A DNA stretch of 61,049 nt, counting the filler, from Hausera hauseri (Eukaryota), in the NCBI GenBank assembly GCA_046269625.1. It is 11 parts of 11 records of this genome, joined end to end, with 100 filler letters (N's around TTAATTAATTAA, not from the genome) between each part and the next. Parts side by side here need not be neighbours in the genome. Positions count along the whole stretch, not along the records: positions 36,554 to 42,248 come from JBJURY010205079.1; 10 more parts are not named here. One strand, written 5' to 3'. Made by a program: the position numbers and the translations under genes. The notes under the pieces were generated by a model. That model was not told the origin of the DNA, ran no database searches, and worked only from the letters and a program-made list of their open reading frames with translations. Position 1 is the stretch's first letter; each line of letters starts with the position of its first letter. Shown here piece by piece: positions 7,346-59,546 of this stretch.

Positions 7346-7369
7346 GTCCTTCTAAAACGTTGTCGAACA

Positions 7370-8398: not shown

Positions 8399-8443
8399 GA
8401 TCTCGACGATGATGATCATGATAGTAATAACGCAGTTTGTTTA

Positions 8444-15078: not shown

Positions 15079-15360
15079 CTATTAAATCGTCTATCATCTC
15101 TTCTGCGATTATCTTTCCGGTTTCTATCACTACGATTATTTCGATCATTATTTCTATCATTTCTATCATTGTGTCCGGCATATCTATCAAGTGCCATTTC
15201 TAAGTCTTGTGCCAATTGCAGAGTTCTCTCGAAATTCTTAGGTCTGGCCAAAATCAACCGTTTAACTAAATCTCGGGACCAAATACCATTAATTAATTGA
15301 GTCGTCATCATGACGTCTAGATCTGGCGGGGTTGCCTTCTCCGCAGCATCACTGGTAACT
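15079..15360 (-). pseudogene. gag: Gypsy gag C-terminal capsid fragment with R/D/N-rich tail
   Basis: QLINGIWSRDLVKRLILARPKNFERTLQLAQDLE, downstream of an LTR and PBS. Confidence 0.65.
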
Positions 15361-15480
15361 TGTACCCAGAATTTAAATTTCGGTTCACGACTATATCACA
15401 GTTACTTAATGTAAGTGGCGCTGTTCGCCGGTATGTAGTTAATGAACTCTCAAAAGTAAAGTCTAGCGAGGAGCAAACTG

Positions 15481-15497
15481 TCCTTCTAGGGTCGCCA
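15481..15497 (-). promoter_or_regulatory. Primer-binding site TGGCGACCCTAGAAGGA (tRNA-Arg-like)
   Basis: Starts TGG two bases after the LTR end ...ATAACA. Confidence 0.75.
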
Positions 15498-15499
15498 AA

Positions 15500-16200
15500 T
15501 GTTATATTGGGGTGGCCCTTCTACAACTCCCACTATATAACAATAATTACACTTGAAATTTAATTAAGATCTGTATGCAGGTAAGGTCTACCGTTCTCGG
15601 AAAGACTGTTTGTGCCTTATTTATATTTATATTTTATTTCGATGCAGGGAAATGCGTTTAATTTTGTGCAGGAATCCTTTAAGAAAACTCTACTCTTAGC
15701 TATTAATTTTACTATAGAAGTTTGGACTTAATGTACGTCAAGCCACTTTTAAGAAGCGGTGAAAAACTATAGGGATTTTAAAACAAAATGACCACGAAAA
15801 CTTCAATAAAATAACTGATTACCAAGAGCTGATATAGGATACACAACAATCAATACGTTTCGTCAATGAATATCAGTTTTCTGCGAATTCCGAATCACTT
15901 CTGGACTCTGACTGTTCTCGTTTACTTCTGACTTCTCTTTGTATATATACTCGTTTAATCCAACCACCGGAAATTTATTTTGTTTTTCTATTGCATTTGC
16001 CACATTTATTCTACATATACATAATTGATCCCAATATTCAACTATTTTCCTGCGTACGTTCTATTTACAATAAATCAACCTGCGTCTTATTTACATTTAT
16101 TTTCCACCACTAAAATGTTTTTATTTATTTTCAATTAGGTCAAGAAAATCAATCTAGTGTGGTACTAACTACTCTCGACATGATTCACTACTATTTTACA
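15500..16200 (-). repeat. 701-bp 5' LTR of a Gypsy element inserted in pPolB
   Basis: Minus strand reads TGTAAAAT...ATATAACA. TATA-like TATATATA near 15945, AATAAA downstream, PBS follows. pPolB is interrupted at 16201. Confidence 0.85.
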
Positions 16201-18240
16201 ACACAACATCAAACATTCGGTACATTTCCGGGTCTTGCAATAACTCGATATCCCGATCTAGTGACATCAGAGCTGATGCCCAACTCATTCCGGGTATTGA
16301 GTAAAAGTTGAGTGTCTCCAGCCTATCTTCCGCCAACGCTTTCGCTCGAAACGCCTGGAACACATCGGCAAATAAGTACACGTCCAGTTTAAGATACTGG
16401 AGCATGTAATCCAACATGTTTCTCCAGCCCAGTTCTGCCCAAGATTTTTTTGATCTCCGATATTCATCTTCTGTGATGCCTGCCCATCGCGGCGGTAATT
16501 CCTCTGTTGTCCGGAGTCGCTTACATGATGTTGCAAATTCATATGATAATATTCCTTTGCTGCATGCAATGTGTGGGGAACTACGTTGAGGTTATAGGCA
16601 CATCCGGCAAGGCATTTACCAGCTTCGCCAATGATTCATTGAGAAATTGCAATGAATCAAGAAATCGTACCTAGAACCGGTACTTCAGGTACTTCTCCAT
16701 TGTTGTTGGGATTATGGACAGTTCCCAGTGCGGAAATCCGTTTATTGCCTATTTCAAAATATGGACACAATCATAACCTCAGAAATTATGAAAGATCACC
16801 GGTAGAAATGGCTGCACACGCCTTTTTAAACTGCATGCGTTGCATGCTGCTCCCAGGTATCGACCGGTGAAATGATCATGGTCTAGTATGAACCGTTCCT
16901 GTGCATAAAATGGCAATATTTTGTGGCAGAGGTAACATTCATCGGTGGCAGGTAAAAGCAGTGGTTCATATTCGTCTGTCCATATCAAGTCTTAGTGCTG
17001 TTGATACTGTACCACGGTGCGATTTCCGTTTGTACTATCGTTTCCAACTATTGCGGGAAATCGCGTATACAGTTCCAGTCATGAAAAACTTAGTATTGTA
17101 GTTGTCCGGCGGCTTTTATTGGAACAACCAACACACCGACGGCTATTGGAATGTGATTTTGATCGAATACGTTGTGCTGCGGTAGGATTGCCTCGATATC
17201 GGCATATACCACATACCAGAGTGCCTGTTTTTGACCAATCACTGAATTTCAGTTCCTTTTTGACTGGCATGACGTACATTGCTGTCCCTGATGAATTTTG
17301 TCTGCACAGCGCCACATGTTTTTCCATGTCGTTTTTGACCTGAAACCACGCAGACATGTAGGGCACCATTTACAGTTTATACGCTTTTTGATGAGTTGGC
17401 GGTGATTCATGTTCAGCAGCCTGTCCAAATTGGCTACTGCCATGTAGTGAAATTTATCTGTTTGCTTTAACAGCAACAAATTTACCGAGGGTTTATTCTG
17501 GTTTCGACTGCGATAAATTATATCCACGTGCGGGTTTTTGTATATCTCTTTGTCTGCTGTTGTACCTGAACATGTTGATTGCCAGTGTTGGATTACGCCG
17601 TTCAAAAAGCCGGAATGGTTTTGAGTTTCATCGGCATCCAACATTCGTCGTAGTCTAATTCTGAAAAATACTTACTGTACTGCTTTGGACAATTTGCATG
17701 ATGTTTGGACACTTGATCATATTTCAATATGGCCAGAATGCTGTAAATAAAGCAGTATTCGTCGTTAGTATTTTGTACATTCACTACCGCCGGAGACTGC
17801 TTCAAGAATGCAGGTGTCGGTATGAATGAACGTCCGGACAGGTAAATCATGTCACTCATCTTGGTCAGAATAAAGCCGATAGTGACAATCTTTACAATTC
17901 GCCTACCACTGCCCTTTTCGGTGTAGTTGGCGATTTTTTCGTCAAGCTTTTCGCCGACATTGGCAATAAAATCCTCAGAGTATTGTACGGCTCGATGTGA
18001 CAGGTAACATTGTTTTCTATCACCATGTAGATTTTTAAATTCTGCAAATGCATCATATTGCACTTTGCAGTGGTGTTGTTGGAATTTGGCCACCTCTGAT
18101 TCCAACCGGTGCATCCTTCAATTGCGTTGCTGCTTTCGCCGACATGTCCACCTTTATGTCCACGTACGATCTGTTCAGATCGTACTTGACAGTAATGGGC
18201 GGTTCACGTTCCTGCTGCTGCTGCTGCTTTTTTTGCGTCC
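16201..18240 (-). pseudogene. Second Polinton pPolB copy (N-terminal part), truncated by the LTR insertion
   Basis: Collinear with 12800-14939: NVQNTNDEYCFIYSILA, DHDHFTGRYLGAACNAC, YLKLDVYLFADVF. Confidence 0.92.
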
Positions 18241-18350
18241 ATTAATATTTCCTTTTTGGACCTCTGAAACTGGTTCAAGTGGTCCATGTAGTTGTTGTAG
18301 AATTGTTTATAGTTCACTTGCGTCTCAACTATAGAACTACATAGGCCCGT

Positions 18351-23000: not shown

Positions 23001-24160
23001 CGCAGGCAATGGTGAGCGGTTTCTAGACGTAAAACGAACGCGGTCAGCGGCAAAACCCCCTCTGCGCGACAGAGACAATTCGTTTAATTTATTATTATTA
23101 TTGTTGATTGTTGCATGTAGTGCAATATTTTCAGCACGTAGCTGATTAAGCTGTTGTTCTATGGATGTATTATTGGTTTGAATATCGTTAGCGGCAACTG
23201 CTGCTGAAACAACTAATGGAGAAATTACGTGTAGGACGTCGTGTGTCCTATCAGCTAATTCGGCTAATTTCTCAATCAGCGTGGAGTCCTCCACTACGGT
23301 AATTAGGGCCCGGATTTGGATAAATAACGCATTGAGGAAATAGTGGCGCAGTAGTTCTGGATTATGTTCCTTAGTGACGCCGAGGGTATGTAGATGTGCT
23401 AAGAAGGTACGTAAGAATTCTGATGGTCGTTGGGTGCCTATAACGTTGTCGTGGAAGAAACGTTGTATGACTGTGACCATGGAAGGTTCTGTGATCTTAA
23501 GAACTGTGTTGGAAAGTTGGGAATTTGGGTCACGGAGTTCGAAGATTTCGGTGATGTTGTAAATGCGGGTTTTGATGTTATTAGGCAGTAAGAAAAGAAG
23601 GTTATGTGCCTTAGTTAGAGAGTCGATAATGTTATTTGCCTGCAGCCATAGTTGATGGAATTGCAACGAAGTTTTGCTGGATCCTTGGTTGTTAATAAAG
23701 AAGTCGGTGCAGTTTGGCAAAGGAGAGGAAGAGGTAATGGATGGGAGGTTGCTCGCAGGGGTAGAAATGGATTTTTGAAGCAATATGACAGGTTTTGGTT
23801 TCGTGTTGGTTTTATCCGTGGTGTCTGCGGTTGGCGAAGAGTTTATGCCACCCCGGATATGGAGATTTATGTGGAGATAAGTGTGGCTTCAGAAAGTGAT
23901 AGGGTTCCGGTTAGGGGTATTATAGAACCGTTATGTATTATAGAACCGTTAAGTAAGAAAGAAATAAAGGTACGAAGGGTTGCAATATGTAAATGTGGTG
24001 TAGTGAATGTGTAAATGTGTATTATTGAGGAAAAGAAAAATAGAAAGGGGGAAGTAGTATGCCTGGGAGCGTGGTGTGAGGTCAATGCGAAAGGCGCCGT
24101 CTGACCGACCGGCGCATGGGTGACGGCCGGTCCCCCGCCGAGGCGCGGCGGGCCCCAAAT
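20073..24160 (-). mobile_element. Degenerate CsRn1-like Ty3/Gypsy element: LTR end cap, gag, PR, RT, RH, INT (3' end cut by contig end)
   Basis: Gag 22953-23783; CHCC knuckle CIYHARFKNQARKCIPGC; protease FLIDTGAAISLL (~22620); RT YIDD; RH TDHKPL; INT TDQGPQF. Confidence 0.95.
24075..24160 (-). repeat. GC-rich LTR end cap (...CCTCACA)
   Basis: Homologous to 53502-53630 and followed by the same pyrimidine-rich leader; contains hairpin GACCGGC..GCCGGTC. Confidence 0.75.
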
Positions 24161-24169
24161 TGCAGGGTG

Positions 24170-24960
24170 ACCGAGTTTCCCATCAAAAGTGCGGCCATGT
24201 CTTGAGCGTCTTTAAATCGACCGGACTCAATCATGCATTTGGTATAGAGACAATTAATGTATCGATCCTCTGTGTCCAATGATTGGGCCTCGTCCAAATA
24301 ATTACTGGCCAAATGGCGATTCCCAGCATCGTAATAAATACGACCTTTCAGTGCATAGAAGTCAGAGTTGGTGTGATATAGCCGGTTTTCAACGAGCTGT
24401 AAGGCATCCAAAACTCGACCCGTATGACTATAGTGTTGTGCCAGCAGATAATTAAGAAACATTTCGATCGTCGACGGTTCGATCTCGGCATCGACACCTT
24501 CCAATATCTGATATTCGTAAATGTTACGTGTATGTTTTGTAGAGTGTCCCTAGAATATCGACCTTTTCCGGAACGTTGTAGGGAAATTTCAATTGCACAA
24601 ACAACGCCCAAAGTCTCTTGCGAAGGGAACGTTTAATGTAATCATCAGCATATCGCTGAAACTTTTCACAGCGTAGTTTTTTTAGTGGAATCCACCGAGG
24701 CGTAAGTGCTCTCGGGTACTTTGCAATTAATTCATCAAGTAATTTGATAATCATATCCTCGTCATCGGTTACTTGTTTAGACTCCATAAATTTATAGTAA
24801 TAATACTCATTGTCCGGATTTCTATCGATTAATTCTCGAAAGATTTTCTCGGCGTCAGTATATCGATGGAGCCTTAGATAAAGTTCATCCTTGAATTCTT
24901 GGTAATGAAGTTTATCCACGATGCTCGATTCATTGCAATTCAAAAGGCTTAAAGCTTCCT
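24170..24960 (-). pseudogene. NAA15: NatA auxiliary subunit (NAA15/NAT1-like TPR) internal fragment, intronless
   Basis: IVDKL..E.K.EL.L.L.R..DA....[11 protein letters not shown]; YLLAQHY; KGRIYYDAG; LDEAQSLDTEDRYIN. Confidence 0.85.
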
Positions 24961-26124
24961 CAAAATTTCTGCTGGTTAGTAAATATCTCTTGATTCTACT
25001 CAGGGCTTCGTATGGATTATCGTACGATCGTTCAGTCAAGCCCGATTCTTGCCGTTGACTGTGGATGAGACGATTTTTAACACTAAATGCGTCTTTCAAT
25101 CGTTCAAGAGCGAGAATTAAAATTTTCGTATCGTGTTTGTTCGTCAAAGGTGGAAACGGAATGGGCGAATAACGTCTACTGTTAAGCTAGTGCACAGATT
25201 GTGCGTAAATGGCCACACCTTCTTCGTTAACCAAATATGGACCGTCTTTCAAGTAGTTGTTTTGTCTTTCTTGTTCCAATTTCAAGTTCAGACAAGTAAG
25301 TTGACCCAAGATTTTCTTACACACTGTTTTGTCGACTTGCATTCCTTCGGATTCTCTCACGATTGTAATGAGCAGTTTTTGTCCACCAATCAGTCTTATT
25401 CTTCAAGTATCGTAAAATCATATTCTTGACAAGTGCCGGCAAATTTGGCACTTTCCAGGGAATATTAGCCTTCCAACATCGCCATGTTTCACTTAAATGC
25501 TGCAAAATACTTTTAGCTTTCGTTTGTTTAATTCCCTCCGGCATCATATCGACAATATCGTGCATAATCGAAGCCCTTAACTCCAGATCGTAATGAGACT
25601 GAACTTTCTGCTTCGTAACAGTTTTAGCAACGCTCTTAATGTGCCGATCTTTAAATTGCCTTGACAAAAAATTGCCTAACCATCGCTCAAGCAGAGGTGT
25701 GATTCCTCGCAAAAGGAAAAGACACACACGCCACATCGGGGTCCAAAATCCAACACCGGGACCTTTCGTAACATTACCTGTATTGAATCGATAGTAAATC
25801 AAATGTTTCAGATCTTTACACATTCTAATCTGTCTCATCAATTTATATTTGTATCGGTACATGCCCGTCAATTGACCGATATGAGCAAATACGTATTGTA
25901 GACCATCGGCCAGCTGGAATGCATCAATGTTCCCCAAACGATATTGCACGTGACAATCAACGACCAATTTGGTAAATCGTAGAATTTCTCGCATCAAATG
26001 AAATGCATTTCCAAATCGAGACTTCTTTCTTTCTTTAGTCGTTAACGTTTTAACTGGTTTCAAATTGAAATTGAAATCCAAATGCAAATAATTCAAATTT
26101 TTACGATGAATGAGCAAATTCAAC
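24961..26124 (-). pseudogene. PRPF8: PRP8 spliceosomal protein internal fragment, intronless, with stop/frameshift
   Basis: [88 protein letters not shown]. Confidence 0.97.
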
Positions 26125-26224: not shown

Positions 26225-26410
26225 ATGTCCTACAAGAAACGAGGCACGAGTTACGAATTTCGCAATGTTTGGTGACAATGTCAAGTGAATGTCGGTGAGT
26301 TGAATGCACACAATTTGAACTCGGTCTGACCATAGGAACATGGGGAAAAATTGACGGGAAAATTTCAAACGGTAAAAATTTCCCATTTTTCAAGTCTGCT
26401 GGCTGTGGAT
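26225..26410 (+). repeat. Third copy of the ~608-bp repeat family
   Basis: Aligns with 6495-6685. Confidence 0.85.
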
Positions 26411-26419
26411 GAATACCTC

Positions 26420-27480
26420 CAAGGTTTAAACGAGCAAAATCAAAGGATTCCAATACAAATTTACGAGTCACCTATTGGCACCCAGAAGACGAAATTTGAC
26501 GTGCAAATGCTACTTTATTCCACACTAGCTGAAAAGGAATTGAGCAGAGTGTTGAAAATAGACATAAGTGAAGATAGGTTAAAGAAATTGATTCCAACCT
26601 TGACCAAGCTATCCAGTGAAAACACCACATACAGTACTGTACTCAAGCTCCTAATAAGAGAATACGGCAAACTACTGAAAAATAAACCAAAAGCGGAAAT
26701 AAAAGTCAAAGTATCATCCGAAGGGATGGACGACAAAAAATTTGAGTGCACTACTTATACCATCGTCGCGGATATAAAACAGCGGATAATTGATAAGGAT
26801 AGTAGGAAAGGAGTTAATTACCGACTCTATTTCAGAGGCAGAATATTAGACGACCTAGAATCCTTAGTACACGTGAGAATCATACCTCTTGAAGAAAACT
26901 GAATAATAGCAGTAGTCGTCAGTGAGAAAACCAAAGATGAAGCTGTCAGGAAGGCGCATACAAAGCATTGCGTCGAAAGAATCATGGGAATTCAAGACGC
27001 CGCAATGTATTTCGAATACTTGCAGACTGATGATGATAAAAATTTAGTCCCTCTAAGCGAAACCTTACCACCAGTAAAAGCGAAACGACCGGTCGGAAGG
27101 CCGAGGAAAATAAAAGAAATTGACTACAATGCAGATCTAATTGGGGAATTGAGAAATTATCAGTACCAACCCCAAGTTCAGATAACGAAGAACTAGTTGA
27201 GCTAATGAAAGACCTAATTAGGATAGTCAACTATACCGGACTCCAAGGCGACATGTTATCTAAGAAGGAAAGGCTAATATATAATATAGCCCTGACAATG
27301 ACGACTTCGCGATTTAAATGATCTAAAAGCACCCTTTCTGACGAAACAATAATTGATAGAATTATGTTAGACAGTCCGATGGAAGAACTAAGGAAAGTCT
27401 TGATATACTTAGAGGTAAGATCCAACCCCCCTCCGAGAAAATGAATTTGACAAGATAATTGGGTTAGCTAGAAAAGCTGC
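26420..27480 (+). pseudogene. Polyprotein region upstream of env: ubiquitin-like domain (~26690-26890) and AT-hook (27083-27109)
   Basis: IKVKV..KFEC..IVADIKQRI..YRLYFRGRILDDLESL resembles ubiquitin (IENVKAKI..QRLIFAGKQLEDGRTL); KRPVGRPRK. Confidence 0.6.
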
Positions 27481-27599
27481 GAGAAGGGTGCCTAAAGAAA
27501 TAAAATGGACTAAATTGTTTGAAAAAGAGGAAAAAATAAAAGGGACTAATAAGATGGAGGACATGATACAAAATATCTCTCCCAACAAAAAAAACAAAT

Positions 27600-29450
27600 C
27601 CAAATGGTTAATCAACTTGCTGACGATAATGATGTTAGTAAAGCAGCTAGGAGCAGTCACCGTATATGACTGCGACAAATTTAAGGTGGGTCAGAGATAT
27701 TTCCTAATGGATCTGGTAGTATGCGAAGATGCCAAACCACACAAGTTGGAAACAAGAGAGAAAAATTATTTCCTGTACCAACAACAAGAACTGATATCGT
27801 TAGACGGAATGGAATGTATTCTGAGACGATCGCGTAGCATTTTTCACTGTGGGTTAGTACACGAACATTCCTCAATAATCAAACCAACAACTTCTCTAAT
27901 TCCCATGAACTTAGAACACCAGCACTGCAAACAAGGTAAGGAGACCGGTAGAGTACAATGGGACAGTATGCAATTGGAAATGCAACCAGGAAAGATAATT
28001 AGGGCATACAAGATAGTGACGGAAAGGTTAGACATGCATAACGGACATTGTCACGGAGCGGAATACGGCACGAGAAAAGGATTGGAAGCAAATGTGGTAG
28101 TCGTGGATTTCTACGAATCGGAGATGCGATCACAGAAAGTAATGTTCCATAGCGTCACTAAGTTATACACTGAGAATCAGAAATGTCATTTACAAGACGG
28201 AACCTGTGCTTTTAGAAGTTCTGTTATAATCTGGGAACCTCCTTCTGGAAGAAGTTGTAATTTTATTAAAATTAAGGAACTGAAGTTTAATGAAACTACG
28301 GGAAAGAGATATGTGCATAAATCAGATACCAACTCGAGGGCGCGCGAAGACGTATTAGAACACATTACACCCACTATATTAATCTCGGATCAGCACGGAC
28401 TGAAATTTATTAAAAAAGGATGATCTCTCGTTGTGACGTAGTGATGTTCGCTGCTAACTATGCAGGATGTTCGAATTGAGGACTACCTGAAAAACAGCGA
28501 TGATTACTTTTATTACAAAGGGCAAGTCGGAATAACGGAATTATATCACAAAATGATAATGAATGACTGTAAATTAGATACCGAAATCATGAGGACGAAA
28601 TTGGCTCAGATATATGCCAACCCAGAATTGGCTTCTTCAATAATTCCTATGAGAGAAAGAATTTTCGGTCGGATTACAGACGAAGTATTGCTAACCTATG
28701 AATGCGAAAACAGAGATGTACCTATCAACGTGGAAGAAAAACGTTGCTTTCAGGAACTTCCGGTTATTTATCAAAATACTTCAAGGTTAGCTATACCGTT
28801 GACGAGAGTGCTATTGGACAATGCAACCAAACCAACCATCCTTAAAGATTGTAAGACGAGTTTAGGAGAACCCATATTTAGGCTGAGTGAAACCGACTAT
28901 GTTAGTTTGCCAAATGGAGGTATTACTGCCGCCCCAAATAAATTGACAGGAACAAATCTTGCCAAAGGAATTACGGACGATAAGTTTCAAGACAACTCAT
29001 CCAAAGGCATATATAGGCCAAAGGAAATCGAAGCTTTCAGGCAATTCCTCGCTTTTCCGCGACAGCGGACGCACGAATTAAATCGGGCCATGGCCTCGGT
29101 AGTAGATGACACACGATATCAAGCCAAATGGGAATCATTACTTGGCGTAAACCATTACCAGCGAGTAACCACAGAAATACTCTACAAAATTTAGGGGAGA
29201 TTTTTGACTTTCGGACAAGTAGCATCCGGAATTTTAGCGATATATTTTCTGATACAAATGACTAAAGCATTCATCCAAGCAGTAATTAATGGGTATGATA
29301 TATTTACATTGACGGGATTTTCTTGCAAAATACTGATTGCAATCATAACATTTTTCGGAAAATTCTTAAAGGCATACAAAGAAAGTAGATGGAAATCGGA
29401 CGTAGAACGCCATGTTGGTTATTATAATCGTAAGCGAAAAATGAGACCTA
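27600..29450 (+). pseudogene. env: Chuvirus/herpes gB-like class III fusion glycoprotein (env), disrupted
   Basis: Signal peptide, then VYDC; ECILRRSRSIFHCG; C...ETG; ANPE; GRITDEVLLTYEC..CFQELPV..P.TRVL; GIY; TM region FGQVASG..INGY..TGFSCKILIAI; basic tail. Confidence 0.85.
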
Positions 29451-30053
29451 TATTCGTGCGGAAACGGAAATTTAAAAAACATAATACACAAAAAAAAACA
29501 ATTCAGATGATGACGAGCCTAAGGGAGGAGAGGTACTGTCAGGAATAAACAGACATAGGACGTACTCTGTCATTAAAGCAGCGTTCCTATACTACCCCCT
29601 ACCGCGCCATTCTACGAAGACTGCGACAAACGATCAATGGGTTCATACCAGACGGAGATTTACAGAAAAACAATTAACGTAGAAGACCCTTATGAAGTAA
29701 CGAAACGTTACGGAATACTACGGAAAATGTGCTACCGACAATCCACAGATGGTCCCAAGATGTTGTATTCTCCAAAAGAACCTCGGAATATAGAAACCAG
29801 ATCAACGGTTTGGGACAATCCAAGGTTAAAAACCTTCCAGAATACTGAACTACATACTAACAATCGAGAACTGTTAATTAGTACGCATGAAGCGGAAGAA
29901 TTACACATAGAAAACAACGAATTATATCCAAACGAAGAATTAAGACAACTATCAGAGAATATAGTATCCTCCCAGAAATCCAAATCAATGGACATAAAAT
30001 ATCGGTAATTAAACGCCCAAAACAGGCAACAAACTGTTTCGGAACAGTAATAG

Positions 30054-30380
30054 AAGGAAGATCTTTTGCCAAAATCATTCTTGAAAATTGGGAAGTTTAC
30101 GCACTAATCGATACAGGTTCTGAGATGTCCTACATTAAAAATGATTCAATACCTCAAGCGTTGAGAGGAAAATTATATCCACCATCTACAAAAAATCCAG
30201 GAAGTACAGGAGCTTTTGGCCAAATGTCAAAACTAATGTTTAAATAGAACCCAGAAGTTCAAATAGTTGGACAGTTTTTCCATCACGAATTTGCAGTCAT
30301 GGAGAAATTAACTGACGACGTAGTTCTAGTATTCGATTCATTAAAAAGATTACCAAATATAGCAATCGACTTACAAACAG
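30054..30380 (+). pseudogene. Retropepsin aspartic protease
   Basis: FAKIILENWEVYALIDTGSEMSYI (DTG at 30110) and downstream VVLVFDSL. Confidence 0.8.
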
Positions 30381-30564
30381 TGAAGCTAATAGAAATCAGG
30401 CCGAATAAAGGCGTGAAAAACGCTAAGGATAGAAAATTTGGATAAGTTTGGATACCCGTAGACANNNNNNNNNNNNNNNNNNNNNNNNNNNNNNNNNNNN
30501 NNNNNNNNTTAATTAATTAANNNNNNNNNNNNNNNNNNNNNNNNNNNNNNNNNNNNNNNNNNNN

Positions 30565-31170: not shown

Positions 31171-31694
31171 TCATGATGTGTCGGTATACCTTTGCGTTTC
31201 TGAGGTATGTTTGATTGTATGAACAATTGTAGCTGAATTCGTAATCAAACAGATATATGCCAGTCCCTCCTGCATAACAGCAGCCAAATCTGCTTGATTT
31301 GACGCATCACTACATATATCAATGAGATCCAAAGCAACACTATCCCACATCGTTTTGTACAATGAATATTTCGTATTCGGAATTATACTCAAACTGTGAC
31401 AAGCACCCATTTTGACAAATTCGTTTTCTTCAACATTGTGACCTTTGATGATGATTTGTGAACCATTTCCATCATAATCCGTATTTTCCACTTCAATTGT
31501 CAACATCGTTCGAATTTGTTTAACATTTGCCGATCCCGTTGACGATTCATTTTGAACTTTCCGCAATGTCGATGATCGGATTCTGTCACCATATTCTATT
31601 AAATCATACGTTGTCCATAAATCTTTGCCATTTTCTGTATCAGTGTGACTTTTCCATTTTTATTCTTATCAATATATTTATTAACGAGCTTCAT
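31171..31694 (-). pseudogene. PELO: Pelota/Dom34 N-terminal half, intronless, frameshifted
   Basis: MKLV.K..GKVTL..DLWTTYDLI..GD.IRSSTLRKVQNESSTGS; KGHNVEENEFVKMGA.H; WDSVALD; ADLAAVMQEGLA.ICL. Confidence 0.92.
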
Positions 31695-31889
31695 AGCTTC
31701 TGTTTCACAAATCTTACAAAAGAAATCTCTTTTCAAATATTAATCAGTTTGACTTACGTAGAAAAAAATGACGTTCAACAATCGAAATTTAAAACAAACG
31801 TTATATATATATATATATATATATTTGTAAAACATAAACGTTTTATATATTTGTTTAAACAAACTGTAAATATTCAAGGTCGTCAAATC

Positions 31890-33256
31890 CGGCAATAACG
31901 TTGGCGATATAATTTTCCACATTAACAGGGCAAATGCATAAATGTCGGCCGAAAAGAAATGTTCAAATTTAATCGGGCACAGTTTCTGATGGCTGCCATT
32001 CGGGTTACTTGAAAATGTCATGTCCGGTATTGAATTTACCAAACCGTCCAAGTCCGAACAAAGACAATTGACAAGGATTTCCAGTAAACCGAGATCACCG
32101 ATGCATGCTTCACCCGGTTTGATAATGAGAATATTTTTCGATTTCAAATCGCGATGTGCTATCGACGGTTTCCCTTGCGGTCCGCTGACAATTTCGTTAT
32201 GAAGATGGGACAGACCGGCAGCAATCGAGTATGACAATTTAAGACAATCCTTGACTGATACAAATGCCGTGTGGAGATAATCATAAAGCTAACCGAGTTC
32301 GTGATAATGCATTATGAGCCACAGTTGCGTACAACCGAATTGGGATGCCATATCGGATGCGTAATAGCCCAGTATGTTCGGATGACGTAGTAAAAATATG
32401 TTGTAAATATGCGTTTTCCGTGCCCAACTCGTCTCATCGCGACTAGAAAAGATTTTAACGGCGACCAATTCACTGTAATAAGCGCCTTTCCATACTTCAC
32501 CAAATCGACCTTTCCCAATTGCATTGATTAGTTAAACTTATATGGCGATTGTTCGCTGTACGAGAAACGGTATACCGGAACCGCTGCCACTCGTGTATGA
32601 ATCGCACTGTAGAGTCTGCTGATACGGACTGAAGTGCGTCAATCCGTCTTCGGTCGACGGTAGAATGACGCTAAAATTACCGACGTATCGACTACCGCCA
32701 TTCGATTGCAAACATTTGTCGAAGCACGGTTTAGAAAACGACGATGGGGGATTAGCACGAATTTCCGATAGTGTTGTGTTGTTGATTTCTGTCGTTAATG
32801 TTAGGTTGGAATAAATTTTCAAATATTTCGTCAGGTTATTATGATGTTTGCTTGAGATAATTAGGCGAATAATGACGACAAGCATAACCAAAATGCATAA
32901 CGGCAGAATAATTTTCACAGAGATATTGTAGTAATCAAAATCTGCGGTTAATATAGTCTTATGAACTGATAATTCCTCACTGATGTTAGAACTTACGTTC
33001 AAAAAACAACGTTCGAAAGCATAACATCGAATTGATACATTATATCGATTTGAGCAAAAATCTGACAATCGGATGGACTGATTAAGACAGCCGAATAATA
33101 TTTTGGACGATTGTCTATCAAAGGAGTTGTAGCAACCTTAATTTGAGATACAAAAATTCTCAAAACAAACAGTTGAATTACATAAACATCGATAAACCAT
33201 GATTTATGAAGTTTGAAAAATTCGTCATTCATATACACTGTTTTGCCAAAACTCAA
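31890..33256 (-). pseudogene. TGF-beta/BMP type I receptor (ACVR1/ALK2/Saxophone-like), intronless, disrupted
   Basis: TM helix; GS box TSGSGSGIPFLVQRTIA; GKGRFGEVW; [11 protein letters not shown]; IASDM..TQLWLI.HYHE; GKPSIAHRDLKSKNIL; ADIYAFAL. Confidence 0.9.
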
Positions 33257-36553: not shown

Positions 36554-37390
36554 TCATCTGCCTTTTATCAGGCGAGGAACGCACAGCTAATGTCGTGATC
36601 TTTTCTTGTTTCTCATCATATTCTTTTTGATTTTGATAACACACATACATTGTTGGTCCTTTTCGTTTCAAGCTATTTAGAAGTTTACCGTATTCTTTTC
36701 GAGATAACGTATAATTAACGCTATATATTCTTCCTCGTGTCACGTTACAGCAAATTCGCTGTTTATCAGTAATGTTACATTTTATTATCGCCTGAGTTGT
36801 TATTTCTTTTATCGTGACGGTCACCCATCGAATATATTCTAGCTCGATCATTGTTATAATTTCGATACAACTTTTTCCACTCTTAAATCCCATCGACCTT
36901 GCGATTAGTTGGCTGATTATTATTTCATCTAAGAGTTTCGTTCATTTTTCGCCTTGTGAGAATTTTTATAGATCTATAAAATTTAGTATATTGACACTTA
37001 TAATAATCTCCTTTTTTCTTAATAAACGTAAAATATATGTATAATGGACACCTGAGTTTTCTACTGTACATTGTGTTTTAGTAATCCTTGGATGTAGCAA
37101 GCAATCGTACTGTCGTTTATTTGGATCACTTCTGTTATTATCCCAGGGTATCACTTGTATTCCTATCATGTACTTCGGGGGTAATTGTCTTGGGGTACTC
37201 CAGATCGTACATTTCTGACCTTGCCTTAAGTATGTTACATTGTATTGTAAACTTTTCATTAATATGTATTCTTTTATAACCGTTGCGTGTCTTATTTTAG
37301 CTTGCTCAATTTCCTGTTTTATCATTTGACCTAGTTTTCCAGGAAGTAATATAATAGTGATCAAAATGAGACCCTTTATTTGATGAGTTC
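36554..37390 (-). pseudogene. Extra ORF downstream of integrase with hydrophobic N-terminus and several Cys; function unknown
   Basis: IKGLILITIILLPGKLG...; ORFs 36966-37364 and 36554-36893. Confidence 0.4.
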
Positions 37391-37499
37391 TATATGTTGA
37401 GTCTACTTTGATTACTTTCTCGCTGATGCTTCGTACTAACTCTCTTTCCTCTTTTCTTAGCTAACTCTCTTTGGCTGCGGATTTACATTTATTAACGAG

Positions 37500-40400
37500 A
37501 ACTTTAAGGGAAACGTTGTTTTTCTTTAAGCAGATATTAGGTAAATCCACCTTTTCTACTTCATGTGGTCCTTATATGATCTATCCAACTTAGAGGTATT
37601 ACCCTGCTTAATTACTGTTGAGTGTAACATTACCTTAGCCCCTATTTTGATTTTCGGCTGCTTAGTTTTCTTATCATAATACTTCTTATATTTCAACTTA
37701 TAAAATTTCTGATTATACCCAATTATTTTATAAACCACTTGGAGGCGCTCTTGCATTAGTTGTGTGTATTCTTCTACTTCCATCAAATGTGAAGTAGATT
37801 TCACGTTAAAATCTAAGTTGATTGGTAATCTGGCATCCCTTGTATACATCAGGTAGAAAGGTGTTTTAGTAGCCTCATGGACCGACGTCTGATTTACAAA
37901 AACATATGTGTTAATATATTCATCCCAATCGTCCTGCCTCGTATTTACTACTGTTTGTAATTTTCCTTTCAAGTCTTCAACATATCATTCCACCATTCCA
38001 TTGTTCTCCGAATGTCCGGGCGTGGACCGTAATTTTAATATTTTCATGACACCGCATATGGCTTGCATTACAGTTCCGGTTAAATTCGATGCTTGATTAG
38101 TTAAGAGGATTTGTAGGGCTCCATAAATGAACACAATGTTCTACGAATTTCTCAGCGATTGTTTCCGCCTTCATATTGGCCATAGGTAAGGCGACAACCC
38201 AACGAATGAAATAGTCAATAAAGACTAGAATATACCTATTTCTATTCCTTGTTAGCGGTAATGGTCCTGTTATATCAATAGCAGTGAACTCAAATGATGT
38301 CGGGGGATTATTCCATACTTTGGTAGGTGCTTTAAATTTGGATCCCGTGTTCTTTCGGGTGACGCATAGTTTGCAGATATCGCACCATTCCTGCACGTCT
38401 TTTGTCATTGTTTACCAAAAGTATTTTTATTTCAATTTACGCACCGTCTTACTTACTGATTGGTGTCCACCGAGTAATCCGTCATGATATTGTGTTAACA
38501 GAACTGCTCTGTTCTTCTTTGGAATTACTAAAGCTGGCCCGTTTTTATGGATAAAATATAGAAATCCTTTAAAATATAGAAATCCTTTGGGCAGGTGGCG
38601 GGCCAATTCTTTATCAGTCGGTATCGTCTTGTCTTGTATATACTTCCTGATGGTTCTTATTTCAATATCTTCGTTTTGATTGGCCCTCATTTTCTCTACA
38701 GATCCGTCCATGCTCCATACGGCTGCCACTACTGCTTTATCTATTTCTGGTTTATTGGGCATTCTTGACAAATAGTCCGCATTTGCGTTTCGTGATCCAG
38801 CTTTATATTGAAAGTTTAACGTGAAAAGTTGTAGTTCTAAAGCCCATCGTAGCAGTCTACTATTTGGATTTTCATGCTGCTTTAACCATTGGAGCGGTCT
38901 ATGATCTGTTTAAATTAAGAGAGGTTTATTTTCACTAATATATGTCGAAAATACTTCCAAGGCGAATATTACTACTAAGAGTTCCTTTTCATTTACTGCA
39001 TATTTGTTCTGATGTTTGTTGAGTTTTCTCGTGGCATAAGCCACTGGTTGCTCCTTTCCATCCACGCCTTTTTGTGACAAAACTTCCCGACTCCGTAATC
39101 GCTTGCATCGGTTGCCAAGATGAACGGCTTGGTCATATCAGGGTAGATCAATATTGGGGCTGTTAATAGTGTATCCTTCAGGTATTCAAAGCTTTTTGAC
39201 ACTCGTTCATCCATAATACTTTCACTAGGTCTTCCCTCAACAATTCATACAAAGGTTTCGCAATTTTGCTGAAATCCTTTATAAATCTTCGATAATAATT
39301 TGCCAGACCTAAGAACCGTGGCAATTCTCTAACCGTACTTGGTTTCGGAAAGTCTCTGATTCTTCCTCATAGTTTATCTTGGGGTTTTACGCCATGTATA
39401 TTGACTCGATGTCCCAGGAAATCCACTTCCGCTTGAGCCTATTATTTCGAATCTATCGAAGAGATCTTGTAAATCCTTCAAATGTTGTTGAAAGTTTGAC
39501 GATTCTATTATGCCGTCAATATACACCATGGCGTGAGGGGGTCTAAGAGTAGGAGTTCTGACCTTTGGAATGTTGGCGGTACATTCTTTAATCCGAATGG
39601 CATTCTGTTAAATTCCCATAATCCTTCACCGATTGAGAATGCTGTCTTCGGTTTGTCTTCACTTCTATTTGCCAATAGCCTTTCTGTAAATCAATAGTCG
39701 TAAATATAGTTGATCCATGTAATTTATCTAATATTTCGATTCTAGGTAGCGAATATGTATCCGTTTCAGTTATTTCATTCAACACTGTGTAATCTATACA
39801 AAATCTCAGTCCCATCTTTTTGACTATCACTACTGGAGCTGTCCATGGGGAGCAATAGTTTTAATTTCTTTGCATTTCTATTATTTTTTCTGCCTCCTGC
39901 TTTTTATCATAAGCTAATCGATATGGCCTTTTCTTTATTGGTTTATCCTGTCCTTCCTTTAACTTAATGGTATGCTGTATTATGTTCATTGTCCCCAGAT
40001 CGTAATCGTTCTGTGCGAATCGACTGTTATTTTTTTAATAATTGGGCTAGTATCTTCTCTTCTTTACTCAAAACCTCGCATTTCTGTAATTTCTCCCAAT
40101 TAATCTTGGTGGTTTCGTTCTTCTTTATCTCTGTCTCTTTCTTTAATTTTTCAGTCATCATTTTTTCTATTTGGTCTACATCTGAAATTACCGAGTTAAC
40201 TTCTTCCTTTATTATTTCCTCAGTAGCCGTTACTTTTCCCAATCTAGTATCTCTGCGTAATCGTTTCTCTTTGTTGTGTTAAATTCTTAAGTGGACTTTC
40301 CGTTCCTTACTCTGTCTACGTGTGGAGCAACAAGGACTTCATATTTTTCCATAACTTGTGGAAATGGCTCAAAGTGTATCACCTCAATTAGTAATTTACT

Positions 40401-40850
40401 TTCTATCTTTCCGGGCACCACTATCTCGGGACGTGATGGAATGATAAGGTCTTTTATTAGTGAGACCGTTTCTTCATGTTGACCTTCACCAAACGACTTA
40501 AGCTGGCCTGTTTTTACATCTATGTAAACATTCTCTAGTTGGCTTAATACATCGCCTNNNNNNNNNNACATCGCATCCAATCAAGATCTCATTGGGCAAA
40601 TTCTCTGCTACCCTTATGGTGTGCTTTAGGATTTGCTTACTGATTTTAATCTCGGCATTCAAGACCATTTTTATCTCTTCTGTGCCAAACGCTCCAATAT
40701 TTACTAGTGTTGTAGTTGGTTCCCTTAATTTTCTTTTTAGTTCTTTTGGCAGTAAACTCTGCCATTATTGTGGTCGTAGATCCTGTATCTAGTAAAGCCG
40801 TCAACGGATATTCATTCACCTTTATTTCTACCTCTAATCTTATGGGTGGC
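37500..40850 (-). pseudogene. pol: Ty3/Gypsy pol of a second family (PR-RT-RH-INT), disrupted
   Basis: ALLDTGSTTTI; RFCIDY..LN..YSLPRI..DLQKGYWQI; FILATDASDYGVG; HDGLLGGH; CKLC; AIDITGPLP..NRYILVFIDYF. Confidence 0.95.
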
Positions 40851-41189
40851 TGCCGTTCGTTCTTATCCTGAGTCTTATACGTAGGTTTATGCTTGTAAGG
40901 TGTTGAATTTTTGTCGAAACTCCGTTTCATCTGTTGTACTTGATGCATGGGGTAAAATCCTGTATGTACAACGTATCGGGGGGCTGATGGATTCGCCCAT
41001 GATTGCTCATTATACCGCTGTCCATGATATTCATCTACTGTATTTAGTTGAGGTAAATCGGTTACCAATCTTTGCCTGTACTTCTGCTTTCGTGATTTTA
41101 GTGCTAACTGTTTGATTTTAGATATATGGTTACTCTTCTTCCGTTTCATATTTATTTTATCATATGTAATGTCTTTATCGTTTAACGTA

Positions 41190-42248
41190 CTGTATGGCAT
41201 ATCTCTTTCTTTTTTCTGTAATACCTTTCTTTTCCATTGGAGTTCATGGTTTGCCAAGAAACAACTAGCTACTTCAGGTATTAATGCTATCAGAATCTTC
41301 CATGAACAGCCTACTGCTGCACGGATTTCATGTCTTACAAAGCGCAGTGAGTACTGTCCGTAAAGCACTAATAATAAAATACGTCTAGAAAACCGGATGC
41401 TGCTTGGCCGAAGTATAAGAATTTTTCCAACATCTACATGACATTTTTTGTTACTTCAAATAATCTCTGCCCATTAAATTTTCCCATTGTATTGATCCTT
41501 CTCCATCCCACATTACTGTCCTAGTTAATTCCGTTATCACCCGCTGTCTCTGTTGTGGAAACAGCAACATCCGTCGGTAATCTTCTAGATTTTGCTGTGT
41601 ATATTCCCCCTTACGATATTCCCGTTAGTGGTTCGAACCTCTGGTTCCTTTTCAGGTTAATCAAGTTTAAAGTCTCTGGTTTAGATACTGTTTCTCTTTT
41701 TGGCATTCTAATCCGTTTTTTCGTCCAGCTTAAACATAGATGACATATTGATAGTACAGTTGTCCAGTTGGGTTGGCTTAGCTTTGGATTTCAACAATAT
41801 TCTTGTTACCGGCATTACATATCTTGCTTCTGCCTAATAAACTACGGGAAATTCTGACGTACACTTCAGTTGGTCTAATTGATACTTCTATCCTACTGGT
41901 TATCAATACCTCACCCATGACTTCCAATTACTCCGTCACCGAAGGGCATCACTGGTGCTACCACGTCCGGATTCGTTATTACTAAGGCCATTTTCTTATT
42001 ATTTCATAATTCAGTTTACACTCGTTCATTATTATTTCTCTGAATAAACTATTAATCTCTTTTCTTACATAGTTGATCACGAAATCAATCTTTTAATCAA
42101 AATATTGCGTTTATTTTATGCCTTTTTCATCTTCATCTTTGTTCCATGTATTTCTTTTACTGATAAGAAAATACCTTTATAACTAGTTCTAGACATTTCT
42201 TTATTACATTTTGTTATCATTCCGGTGGCTTTAAATCGCATCATTTCC
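41190..42248 (-). pseudogene. env: Second gB/chuvirus-like glycoprotein (C-terminal half), upstream of protease
   Basis: Manual translation: IIMNECKL, TNPDVVAPVMP, MGEVL, CTSEFPVVY, MPVTRILL..KPTQLDNC, GGIY, YRRMLLFPQQR, QWENLMG, FGQAASGFL, GCSWKILIALI; collinear with 28460-29400. Confidence 0.85.
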
Positions 42249-42348
42249 NNNNNNNNNNNNNNNNNNNNNNNNNNNNNNNNNNNNNNNNNNNNTTAATTAA
42301 TTAANNNNNNNNNNNNNNNNNNNNNNNNNNNNNNNNNNNNNNNNNNNN

Positions 42349-47159: not shown

Positions 47160-47657
47160 CTGGAAACAGAATTGTGAGTAACCATCAAGGTTGTAGCAAT
47201 TGGCTCTCAAGCATTTGAATTAAACTCTGATGGTCGTATTTCGTTTAAACTACATGATAGTGCTACATATTTTGCGGCTGATTAACTATTGGCACGGAAT
47301 CTGGGTTTTAACAAACGAGAATTGGATCAAACAGGCGGTGGACGGCCCATCGTTGATAAACACAAACCACGTGTCTACGAAGCATTTCATCGAATCATTA
47401 TTTTAACGGATCTAACCGAATCCGTATATGTGGGTGGAGACCGTAAACAACTATTGGCGTCTATTTGACTGAATTCGGACATGTACAAAACACCGGGCGA
47501 AACTGTTCATGTAAATATCATTTGACCCATGTACTTGTCATTGTCTCACAATGTTGTGCACAGTATTTTCGTGCATATAGTAGACGAATTTTGGAAACCC
47601 ATTAAATTTCTGTTTAGAGCCATGACACATGTTATGTTACATTTTCGTCGTCGATAA
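47160..47657 (+). pseudogene. Polinton minor capsid B, C-terminal part
   Basis: Closely matches the reverse complement of 8450-8919; ends LHFRRR. Confidence 0.75.
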
Positions 47658-47708
47658 TAAACAAACTGCGCCATCACTATCATCGTCATCATCATCGTCA
47701 TCGAGATC

Positions 47709-48746
47709 ATGAGTATTTACATGGTGTTACCGAGCAACAGTTGTCCGACGACTAATGTGAACAATTCAGCCAGTGAATACGTTGTAGATTGGAACAATAC
47801 TTTGGATTTATCTGGAAAATGGGAGGTTTCACTGACTAAATTTAACTTTCCCTACGCGCTGGTGACATTGAAAGGTAGTATGAAAATAAGGTACAACAAG
47901 ACTGTTACTGAAACCATAACACATTCTTGTCCTCTGACACTTACTAACAATAAAGTAACAGTTGGAGAATAGGCCACTTGCACGACTAAAGCAAACTATA
48001 GTTCACACGCCAAGATCGGTGTTTTTATTTTAGATCAAAACTTACATTTTATGACAGATTTTGAATTTAATGTCACATTTGAGTCCTCTGAGAAGGCGCA
48101 GAAATTTGGATTCAAAAATACAGAGAACAAAGGTCAAAATATGAAAAGTGAATATGTAATTGATCCAAGAATAAGTCCCGTATATTATCAGACAACGGTG
48201 AAATTTACCTATACAGCAGAAAGGGTGCCAATATCATACTTATCGATTGGAGACAATGTCTATTGCGAATCTGTAGCACATCTCTGTCAACACTTTTTTC
48301 AATCAAAAGTACAAGGCGATATTTAAAGGAAGTACATTAAATTTGAACTGGCTAAGGATACTGTCGATATTTCATTGGACAAAGCTTTGGCCATGGTATT
48401 GGGTTTTGAAAAACAGCGGTTTGAGGCATCGAATACGAAGCCCACGGCACATGTTGCAACACTTAAACCCAAACTGAAAACTGGACTAAATCACGTCACC
48501 AAACCAATTTCGGTCGGTGGAGTACGTGTACTGCTACTCAATGCAATTTATCCGGAAAGCAGTAAGTATACTGATGGCGACAATGTCACTGTCAAGCTCG
48601 ATAATCCAATGTACCTAGCTGTGGCAACTACAACTATAAACAATGTTGAAGTCAACATCCGATGTGACGCGGGCTTTCTTATCGAATTTCCGTACGGTAT
48701 CACAACCAGTCTAACTCTTCTTTTCCGTCGAAACCAACATGATTGA
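47709..48746 (+). pseudogene. Polinton minor capsid (penton-like) A
   Basis: MSIYMVLPSNS...KWEVSL; ends IEFPYGITTSLTLLFRR. Confidence 0.85.
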
Positions 48747-49082
48747 TTCTGAAATCGTGTCCATTTACAGTAAAACCCAACAAGGCGGTGAACTGTCGTA
48801 TTTCGTTGGTAAGCAGTATGGCTCTGGATGGTTGCGCACATTGACAAGTTTAGCATTTTCGGTGTTGAAGTGGCAGCAAAAGGAGCACAGGACGTACTAT
48901 ATAAAAACAAATCGATTTTGCCATCACTGAAGGAACACGCCTTTGACAGAAATGAAAATCGCTGCACCGGGATTCGTTGAATTGGTCAAAAAATAATTCG
49001 CTGGTAGTAGCTATAGAAAACGTGGTATATCAGCCAGCTTTTCTACTATACACAAACATCGTCGTCGTACGATTTTCGATTG
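48739..49082 (+). pseudogene. Small basic core / pX-like ('GasderminX'-type) protein
   Basis: QQGG..YF.G.QYGSGWLRTL motif, located between penton and hexon. Confidence 0.6.
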
Positions 49083-49094
49083 ATTGATAAACAA

Positions 49095-50328
49095 ATGGCA
49101 TCTGAAAAATCTTAATTGTGTATATTCGCCAAAGCCACAATACAAGTTGTTATTGACAGTGCGGCATTTAAAGAAGTCTACCTCATTGATTCTGTTTCAA
49201 CGGACTATAACATTGACATCCAATTCAAAATTATGGTATCGGACAATGAATACCTGTATTTCAACGATATGCTACTCTATGCAAAAATTATTGTTAAAAA
49301 GAATGCATTAACGGTTCTCAATAAAATAGACACTGACACACCGGCCAATTACATTTTCTTCACACTGTTCCAGGAGGCTTCACAGACTCTAAACAGCGCC
49401 AAAATCGAAGGAAACACCAGTCTATACAGTATCAAAGCACTCATTGAAATGGCTCTGAATTACAATACTGACACAAAAACGACTCCTTTGACAAAAACCA
49501 TCGGATATGATGACAATGCAGCAAACCATGAGGCATGGGTGGCAAAATCAAGAGCGCTTACAATGTGTGGATCGCTGTACTTTGACTTTTCGATCAGCCG
49601 AAATACCTGCTGCCCGGTATTAAAGCCATGATTCGGCTCAAACGCAGCTACAATGCCTTTTGTTTGAAAACCACAGTTGCTAATCCCAAACTCATACTGG
49701 AAATTACCGAAGCACGATTATACGTACATCGTGTAATTGTAGAACCATCTGTGCTTATGGGACATCTTTTGGGCTTGGAAACACAAAATGCTTGTTACCC
49801 ATTACAACGCACAGAACTCGTGTTTTACACCATACCCAAAGGTTTGACAACATTTCACAAGGACGCTCTGTTTGGCAACATGAAATTGCCGAAATTTGCA
49901 CTCGTTACACTTCGACGACTACTCAATAAACGGGCCTTCATACCACCGATTCGGAAACGCTTACCCATAGCAAAGTGAATTACATCAGTTTGGGTAAAAA
50001 TGCGGATTTCGTTCAGACATACAAGCAGGATTTCGAGAACGGCGATTAGGTTTGCACATATATGCAATCTATCGTGCGCAACATGGGTTTGCTGAACAAA
50101 AATGTCAACAATGGTAGATCGATGGATTTGTTCAAGTCCACCTATACATTCCCTACCTTTGTCCTGGCTCGAGATTATGACGTTGAACAGACTTAACTAC
50201 CTCATCAGGGAAACCTACGACTGGAGGTTCACTCTGCTAAATTGTTGAAACAGTCTACTGTGATGTACATTTACGGTGTATTTGATACCGAGGTTGAAAT
50301 AACGAAAAACGGAAAAGTCATTGTATAA
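49095..50328 (+). pseudogene. Polinton/Adintovirus major capsid (double jelly-roll, hexon-like), disrupted
   Basis: KS*LCIF...IQ..ID; LYAKI; NYIFFTLF; Y.IKALIE..LNY; IRLKRS...FCL; A.LYV.RV; A.YP; GNLRLEV. Confidence 0.88.
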
Positions 50329-57700: not shown

Positions 57701-58247
57701 ATTTTTCCTTGCCATACATACTGAATGTTTTATTTATGTGCCTTGTGTTTGATTGCAGAATTGTACATGTATGCTTAAGTAAAACTTAAGAAAAAAATAA
57801 TAATGTAATCAATATCAATGCAGATCATTTAGATTTAAGACTTTTCCACACAAACTCTCAGGTCTCTAAGCCTTAAACACTGACCGCTGGGTTCCGTGGT
57901 TTCCGGTTTTGTGGTGTCCGGACGTGTTTTGCGAAGCTCTTAAAAACTTGTGTTTATATCTAGTAATTTCTAATGGATTTACAAGGAATCGTACACCTAT
58001 ACTTTTTTATCATATTTATTACAAAGTGCTGCATTGTTTTATAAATATTTGTGAGTTTCAAGATGTCTTTTGATCAAAAGGAATCGGTAAAGTATTAACA
58101 TTGTAATTATCGATATTGTGATTGTGAACATTCCGATCGTCCCACGTGGTGAGTCTCAATTTTACCTGGGCCTCAAGTCTAACAAAGAGACGCTGTCCAT
58201 ATGGGCCACGTAATTGATCGTAGTCCATCCTCAAAAGACATGTAAAC

Positions 58248-59546
58248 ATGTCTTGTTTGGAGGAAGGCGTCACGAATGAGGTGTCAGTCTATACAAGGGA
58301 CAGTCGGCTGCGTCCTACTTCTCTGAAAGACTATTCACTTAACAAAGAAAAAGCAGTCCGAAAAAAACTGAAAGCATGTAACCACTCTCTTGGCTTTACG
58401 CTAAGACGATCAAGTCAGGGGAAGAGCACAACAATTAGCTTTTCTAACACTGTCGAGTACGAAATTTTTCGTACTCAACTAATCCAACATTGCAATGGAA
58501 AAATAGACTCAAGGCTTGACAAATTGGGGGCACATGTGGAGGATGTGGTCATTACTCAAGGAGTAACGATTCACCTATACCACACCAAAAATAAAATTCT
58601 AGTTCAAGGAACTGCGGTTAATGTTGAAGCTTGGCTAGAAACCACATTTAGTAAACTACATGTTTCATCACTGAACGAAATCAAGAGCAATAACTCGATA
58701 ACAGATAACCTAAGTCTGGGCTCACATATTCGTCAAAGTGCAATCGATGTAGTCGCAACCAATAACGATAACGATCTATTTCAAAACGAAATGGCAGTAG
58801 CAGCCAACACCATCAACCAAACATCCAATAACAATGCCGACTACGACCCAAACCCTGTAAATCTCACAGTGGAAATATCCTTACCCAAATATCCCAGCAT
58901 AATTGAATGTGACCTAACGTCTGCAGCTATAAGCTCACCAGCAAGCCTTGGCAATTTCCTGATCGATGCCCTGCTTCATAAACCCATGTTGACGATTGAA
59001 CGTTCCAGAAAGAAAGACACATCCAATGAAACTGATGATCTCACGAGCTTCCCTCCACTGCTGTCACAAACGTCTCGTTGCTGCCAGAAATCACTAAGCA
59101 CCATGGAGTATATCCTGAAGGATGCAATCGATAAAGCTGAAGACAGAATTAAGAGATCTGTAAGTTCAGAAATGGAAAGCTTGAAAAACGAGATTCTGAG
59201 TTTAAAAGCAGAGAACCAGAAAATGAAAAAGGCACTGACCCACCTACAGAACGCATCTGAAACAACCAAAATACCTCCACCAGAAAATTCCACAGCAACA
59301 AAACCTGAAAGCAAAGATGTGAGAGATAAGAAGCAGCAAAATCAGCCTGAAAGGCAAATTAACAAGCAGCAAAGTCAGCCCGAGCAACGCACCACCGAGC
59401 AGGCAAAAGGCACATCACAGCCAATTGAGGTGAAAATCAGCAATAGGTTTGAAGCGCTGCAAAACGATTGTCAACCAACAGGCCGCTCAGTTGCAGAGCC
59501 GAAGCCAAAGGTAAACAAACGTGCTTCTTTATCATTCTTTTGCTGA
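58248..59546 (+). CDS. Probable LINE (CR1/L2-like) ORF1, 3' truncated
   Basis: 432-aa open frame with TIHLYHT.NKILVQG domain, coiled coil and ISNRFEAL motif; LINE-like 5' UTR at ~57860-57960. Confidence 0.6.
   Translation: MSCLEEGVTNEVSVYTRDSRLRPTSLKDYSLNKEKAVRKKLKACNHSLGFTLRRSSQGKSTTISFSNTVEYEIFRTQLIQHCNGKIDSRLDKLGAHVEDVVITQGVTIHLYHTKNKILVQGTAVNVEAWLETTFSKLHVSSLNEIKSNNSITDNLSLGSHIRQSAIDVVATNNDNDLFQNEMAVAANTINQTSNNNADYDPNPVNLTVEISLPKYPSIIECDLTSAAISSPASLGNFLIDALLHKPMLTIERSRKKDTSNETDDLTSFPPLLSQTSRCCQKSLSTMEYILKDAIDKAEDRIKRSVSSEMESLKNEILSLKAENQKMKKALTHLQNASETTKIPPPENSTATKPESKDVRDKKQQNQPERQINKQQSQPEQRTTEQAKGTSQPIEVKISNRFEALQNDCQPTGRSVAEPKPKVNKRASLSFFC

Follow-up and report, generated by a model that had tools for sequence, protein, structure and literature searches.

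A decayed, contig-truncated Ty3/Gypsy copy of Hausera hauseri with a class III env directly before pol, likely of a Burro-like gag-env-pol lineage

Results and discussion

The contig at positions 36554-42248 (5.7 kb, minus strand) of the window, that is, the whole 61,049-nucleotide stretch of Hausera hauseri DNA analysed here, very likely carries one decayed copy, truncated by the contig, of a multi-copy Ty3/Gypsy element in which a class III env gene lies directly before protease, reverse transcriptase (RT), RNase H and integrase. This element probably belongs to a published Burro-like gag-env-pol lineage, the intact members of which are encoded in a single frame. The window consists of 11 contigs of 4-9 kb each, joined by 100-base linkers; it is repeat-rich and fragmented, and its content is almost entirely the remains of animal transposons. 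The contig of the env-pol copy stops at 42248, within env, and therefore nothing 5' of env is visible for this copy; both ends of the element, where the LTRs and the primer-binding site would be located, fall beyond the contig, and a gap of 10 N interrupts the copy at 40558-40567. A second, sister copy (26225-30464, plus strand) repeats the same env-protease order (Table 1).

Table 1. Features of the env-pol copy, the adjoining linker and the sister copy (positions in the window)
Feature	Position	Strand	Support or remark
Env, class III (chuvirus G / gB-type), C-terminal ~57%, split over three frames, cut by contig end	41228..42248	-	motifs, tblastn, Pfam, family profile
Env-protease spacer, ~141 aa, open; PSAP near 40990, hydrophobic-Tyr-Pro motif near 40954	40820..41242	-	translation, motif scan
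Protease of the retropepsin type (LLDTGS at 40795), continuing in a different frame for its second half; end approximate	40570..40819	-	PF13975 E 6.7e-5, below cut-off
Linker between protease and RT, conserved across relatives	40040..40553	-	family profile E 3e-5
RT and RNase H, interrupted by stops and frame changes	38823..40019	-	domain matches
Integrase: H2C2 zinc finger, core, C-terminal domain	37482..38525	-	domain matches
In-frame extension past integrase, cut by contig end	36554..37499	-	315 codons, 3 stops, one signal-like hydrophobic segment
Assembly linker (44 N, TTAATTAATTAA, 44 N)	42249..42348	.	contig end; hides 5' part of element
Ubiquitin/SUMO-like domain and AT-hook-like motif, upstream of sister-copy env	26696..27115	+	PF13881 E 0.005, PF00240 E 0.007, PF02178 E 0.2; all below cut-off
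Full-length class III env, internal signal-like segment, single frame, 4 internal stops	27623..29548	+	PF24664 166.6 bits; predicted fold
Spacer (PTAP near 29598, LYPNEEL, in shifted frame) and protease (LIDTGS at 30104), to contig end	29549..30464	+	motif scan, domain matches

The env-pol copy and its sister

The Ty3/Gypsy pol order, protease-RT-RNase H-integrase with an H2C2 finger and an rve core, is present in the env-pol copy; a profile search of the protease-RT linker yielded no dUTPase match. Env ends in two hydrophobic segments, marked by FGQAASG at 41412 and SWKILIAL at 41305, and the second of these, the spacer and LLDTGS are all held by one open frame, 40646-41455 (stop to stop). 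Thus, the claim in the preliminary description that the transmembrane tail runs in one open frame into the protease stands, but the further claim that this frame continues into Gypsy pol does not: past the protease active site, pol is collinear, not open, with many stops and frame changes. This copy is decayed and dead.

All the glycoprotein motifs previously listed for 41190-42248 (minus) were recovered, in three minus frames. A family profile built from 13 relatives only scored 60.8, 59.5 and 41.5 bits against these frames, compared with a best score of 5.1 bits among 300 triplet-shuffled versions (3 frames each), and the three matches follow one another along the profile, from position 262 to 611 of 613. 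One of the frames alone passes the Pfam family PF24664 (Monjiviricetes_fusion; 29.9 bits, cut-off 27). The proposed collinearity with the plus-strand glycoprotein of the sister copy was likewise confirmed (tblastn within the window, linked E 3.45e-15); that glycoprotein, previously placed at 28460-29400, is indeed present there but is larger than described, occupying 27623-29548 in one frame with its internal stops.

The fold was predicted for the sister-copy env (X at stops, 111 relatives), not for the broken env of the env-pol copy. The model (mean pLDDT 80.6, pTM 0.51) contains a 48-residue central helix; its best PDB matches are to herpesvirus gB (E 1e-12, with TM-scores of at most ~0.35 among the matches listed), and its best viral matches are to the glycoproteins of chu-like and related negative-strand viruses (E 6e-32, TM up to 0.54). 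The assignment of env to class III, already made in the preliminary description, holds.

Gene order in relatives and across the family

An HMMER search identified 460 relatives, 16 of them at E<=1e-30; among these 16, 11 are polyproteins in which gag precedes env or pol domains follow it. Within the domain census, which comprised 156 proteins (P0049-P0204), env co-occurred with another element domain in 20. Protease, RT or RNase H followed env in 18 of the 20 and gag preceded it in 7, and in none of the 20 was a protease, RT, RNase H or integrase core found before env. Env only was detected in 135 of the 156 proteins, and therefore gag-pol-env elements with env as a separate ORF are invisible to this census. 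One protein, P0080, is of the BEL/Pao type, with DUF5641 before env.

In intact relatives, env, protease and pol share one common frame. Relative L002 encodes, in one 3,703-codon frame, gag (262-750), env (3775-5565) and then the protease, RT, RNase H and integrase domains, followed by a membrane tail; in L001, the frame spans 3,426 codons and is still open on the 5' side. A hydrophobic, signal-like segment lies ahead of the env start in 15 of the 16 relatives checked, where an internal signal cut by signal peptidase would be expected. Env before pol is the native order, as had been proposed, whereas the env-pro-pol polyprotein proposed with it has to be revised, because the relatives have gag-env-pro-pol; given that the contig ends inside env, the appearance of env-pro-pol without gag is probably a truncation artefact.

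Because intact relatives carry gag-env-pro-pol in one frame, the junction of env and protease is not a deletion. A junction created by deletion or nesting of two ordinary gag-pol-env copies, or by a chimeric assembly, would suit a stretch as repetitive and fragmented as this one, and single contigs of run X1, which may be from the same source as the window, show local skips around the junction. However, the env-spacer-protease arrangement is common to the two diverged copies in the window and is held in one open frame by intact relatives; the distance from FGQ to the protease, ~207 aa in the env-pol copy, is inside the range of the relatives (166-401 aa, measurable in 7 of 16); and diverged X1 contigs tile the protease-spacer-env junction (40692-41048, 66 differences; 41042-41272, 20 differences). 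This explanation is largely refuted, and we consider it exceedingly improbable. Altogether, run X1 yielded 6,436 contigs along the whole element, of which 5,558 were <95% alike, and these contigs show a family and not one rearranged copy. Among the multi-domain relatives and in the fold model of the sister-copy env, we found neither relatives with gag-pol-env order that would turn the junction into a deletion nor an env lacking a class III fold, the two outcomes that the preliminary description had named as speaking against its own reading.

The absence of a gag profile match anywhere in the window could also mean that the element lacks gag, as the wording of the preliminary description implies, and is an env-pro-pol element that is non-autonomous or has its gag encoded elsewhere. 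The sister copy has ~1.4 kb upstream of its env without gag, the first ~200 bases of that stretch resembling a different repeat at 5976-6729. In relatives, however, gag ends 300-1,000 residues ahead of env, the interval being occupied by cargo that includes ubiquitin-like domains, and therefore gag would fall beyond both contig ends; a gag-less element appears very unlikely. Nor does a minimal gag between env and protease account well for the data. The ENV-GAG-POL order with a very short gag exists in two oribatid mites (PMC13524379, in its accessible part), and the spacer of the env-pol copy is open and basic. Against this order, that spacer is only ~141 aa long and contains neither a CCHC knuckle nor a gag profile match, none of the 18 relatives' spacers contains CCHC, and a full gag is located upstream in relatives, making this alternative hardly credible. 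The earlier statement that neither gag nor an LTR separates env from protease is upheld; no long direct repeat is listed on the contig.

The RNase H-integrase region supports placement of the env-pol copy in the gag-env-pol lineage: its identity to 9 lineage proteins is 32-42%, compared with 25-26% to two further gypsy elements of the window. In the tree, a 100/100 branch splits the 9 lineage proteins and the env-pol copy from these two gypsy elements, which are the only two outgroup rows of a tree that carries a long-branch warning on the env-pol-copy row and was built from these relatives and window elements only.

Several observations on the relatives are recorded separately. Downstream of env, five proteins (P0199, P0052, P0053, P0202 and P0203) have between 3 and 5 aspartic protease motifs, some of which lie past the integrase; zinc fingers and ankyrin repeats are present as well. 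The best env relative, P0049, is labelled a protein of a Flavobacteriaceae MAG but most likely represents animal DNA in a bacterial bin. Both intact relatives have a separate downstream ORF (L001, 10617-12107; L002, 12085-13473) with a match to an RNase T-like exonuclease, above the cut-off of 24 in L001 (E 1.4e-5, 26.1 bits) and below the cut-off in L002 (E 0.001).

The env-protease spacer and the region past integrase

The spacer is otherwise variable among relatives, but a Tyr-Pro dipeptide occurs in 15 of 17, against 4.83 expected, and none of 5,000 shuffles reached 15; YPx(1-3)[LI] occurs in 10 of the 17 (1.98 expected) and YPxL in 5. These figures apply to patterns chosen after inspection and to 17 relatives that are kin. 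P(T/S)AP is present in only 1 of the 17 but in both copies in the window, where it is paired with a Tyr-Pro-type motif. Such motifs suggest that the spacer harbours either budding signals or a site of protease cleavage. Retroviral proteases typically cut at aromatic-Pro sites, and it is quite possible, if just short of probable, that the spacer Tyr-Pro is such a site, at which the protease would be released from the Env tail, rather than a late domain binding ALIX. The dipeptide is found 11-76 residues ahead of the protease domain in relatives, and it is far better conserved than YPxL or P(T/S)AP. The enrichment of YPx(1-3)[LI] points in the other direction, as does the co-occurrence of the motif with P(T/S)AP in both copies in the window, which resembles HIV p6, where PTAP and LYPXnL are described as recruiting Tsg101 and Alix (PMC2651531, in its accessible part).

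The extension that follows integrase in the env-pol copy has 3 stops in frame, whereas the two remaining frames have 25 and 40. Each of the six full-length close relatives, and L001 as well, possesses two hydrophobic segments after integrase, the first signal-like and the second a transmembrane segment, with an ectodomain between them. The extension is probably the ectodomain of another membrane protein and breaks off at the contig end. No sequence or fold homology was found between this tail and those of the relatives, and therefore the parallel is positional only. Neither the conserved spacer Tyr-Pro nor the post-integrase membrane protein was found described in the literature searched.

A possible route of expression and assembly

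From this layout, we infer a topology, a cleavage scheme and a mode of budding for intact members of the family. The polyprotein could thread the ER membrane in the style of flavivirus or alphavirus polyproteins: an internal signal after Gag and the accessory domains would send the Env ectodomain to the lumen, signal peptidase would free the Env N-terminus, and the Env anchor would bring the chain back to the cytosol. Pol (protease-RT-integrase) would then hang on the Env tail until cut off by the element's own protease, and a further type I membrane protein would arise from a second internal signal past integrase. Budding of Gag would take place through membranes that carry Env, possibly with the help of late-domain-like motifs in the Env-protease spacer, and the outcome would be enveloped particles able to move between cells. 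An infectious lineage is likewise only what we infer; the env-pol copy itself, being decayed, is no longer capable of any of these steps.

A bolder and rather unlikely version of this scheme has Pol entering the particle on the Env tail, not on the Gag tail, with p6-like signals (P(T/S)AP, LYPxnL) located between Env and protease, and a second glycoprotein, released from the same chain past integrase, serving as an attachment partner. If this were the case, retrotransposition would be obligately enveloped, with two-glycoprotein entry from one polyprotein and an assembly unlike that of any orthodox retrovirus.

Other features of the window

The other contigs contain diverse remnants. At 24082-26123 (minus), intronless-looking fragments of Prp8 and a NatA subunit adjoin, directly upstream of a gypsy gag-pol, and at 31171-33137 (minus), fragments of genes for a TGF-beta type I receptor and an eRF1-domain protein lie beside another gypsy integrase. 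At 11700-18300 (minus), a region for protein-primed DNA polymerase B (PF03175), probably Polinton-like, is present in two decayed copies ~3.4 kb apart. Two inverted ORF copies (7031-8898 and 47212-50178), 84-89% alike and with no Pfam match, look like Polinton capsid genes. Finally, a 440-aa open frame at 58224-59546 (plus) has no passing Pfam match and resembles a non-LTR ORF1 by eye.

Comparison with known systems

The accessible part of the account of planarian Burro/GYPSM1 (Arkhipova and Yushenova 2019, PMC6431247, which cites Grohme 2018) describes an env located in frame between gag and pol and related to mononegavirus fusion proteins. Burro also has a ubiquitin/SUMO-like domain upstream of env, to which the weak, below-cut-off match in the sister copy would correspond, and Burro-like Bcl-2 and ankyrin cargo was found in relatives P0050 and P0199; no BCL2 was seen in the upstream region of the sister copy. 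In contrast to Burro as described there, the env-pol copy is compact from env to integrase, has one protease, and is decayed and truncated; neither BCL2, BIR, MATH or ankyrin nor LTRs or the giant size of Burro (over 25 kb) is visible in this copy, the contigs concerned being 4-6 kb long. Furthermore, Burro has a dUTPase-like domain at the position of the protease-RT linker, where the env-pol copy has no such match.

The second published group consists of GAG-ENV-POL gypsy elements with a gB-type env from Nematoda, Bryozoa and Platyhelminthes (Chary and Hayashi, eLife 2026, PMC13524379, in its accessible part). These errantiviruses share with the env-pol copy a Ty3/gypsy pol and a gB-type env directly upstream of pol; any gag upstream would be hidden by the contig end in the env-pol copy, and among relatives it is present in the 7 of 20 multi-domain proteins and in L002. 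By eye, the sister-copy env shares motifs with the six Smed_errantivirus C1a (Platyhelminthes) rows accessible in that paper and not with its nematode C1 env rows, so that the type of env points to flatworms. The published elements are intact, whereas the env-pol copy is decayed. The main text, so far as accessible, contains no mention of polyprotein, fibronectin, late domain, ESCRT, budding or signal peptidase.

Retroelements of other groups bear a more limited likeness to the env-pol copy. The nematode non-canonical ERVs of Sacco et al. 2022 reportedly carry a continuous gag-env-pro-pol ORF. As cited in the accessible part of PMC13524379, these are metaviruses with env before pol, a likeness to the env-pol copy, but the nematode C1 env rows differ, by eye, in lacking the sister-copy motifs. 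The Anakin BEL/Pao elements with a chuvirus glycoprotein (PMC7642597, PMC10084718, in their accessible parts) have an env of the same family (PF24664) in a different retroelement superfamily, and in the BEL/Pao-type protein P0080 env follows DUF5641, whereas in the env-pol copy env lies 5' of a gypsy-type pol. Membership in this BEL/Pao group was rejected on the basis of that position and of the lack of an env match 3' of integrase on the contig; membership among the oribatid-mite ENV-GAG-POL elements was rejected for lack of a short gag between env and protease.

Thus, env before pol, the novelty of which was implied in the preliminary description, was already known from planarian Burro (PMC6431247) and from GAG-ENV-POL gypsy elements (PMC13524379), in the accessible parts of both sources. 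With gene order and layout already in print and the env-pol copy dead, the present case matters little as a gene-order discovery. What it adds to these known systems is one more host genome in which gag-env-pol elements form a large family and, in the conserved motif of the spacer and the membrane protein after integrase, testable handles on the processing and packaging of a membrane-crossing Gag-Env-Pol chain.
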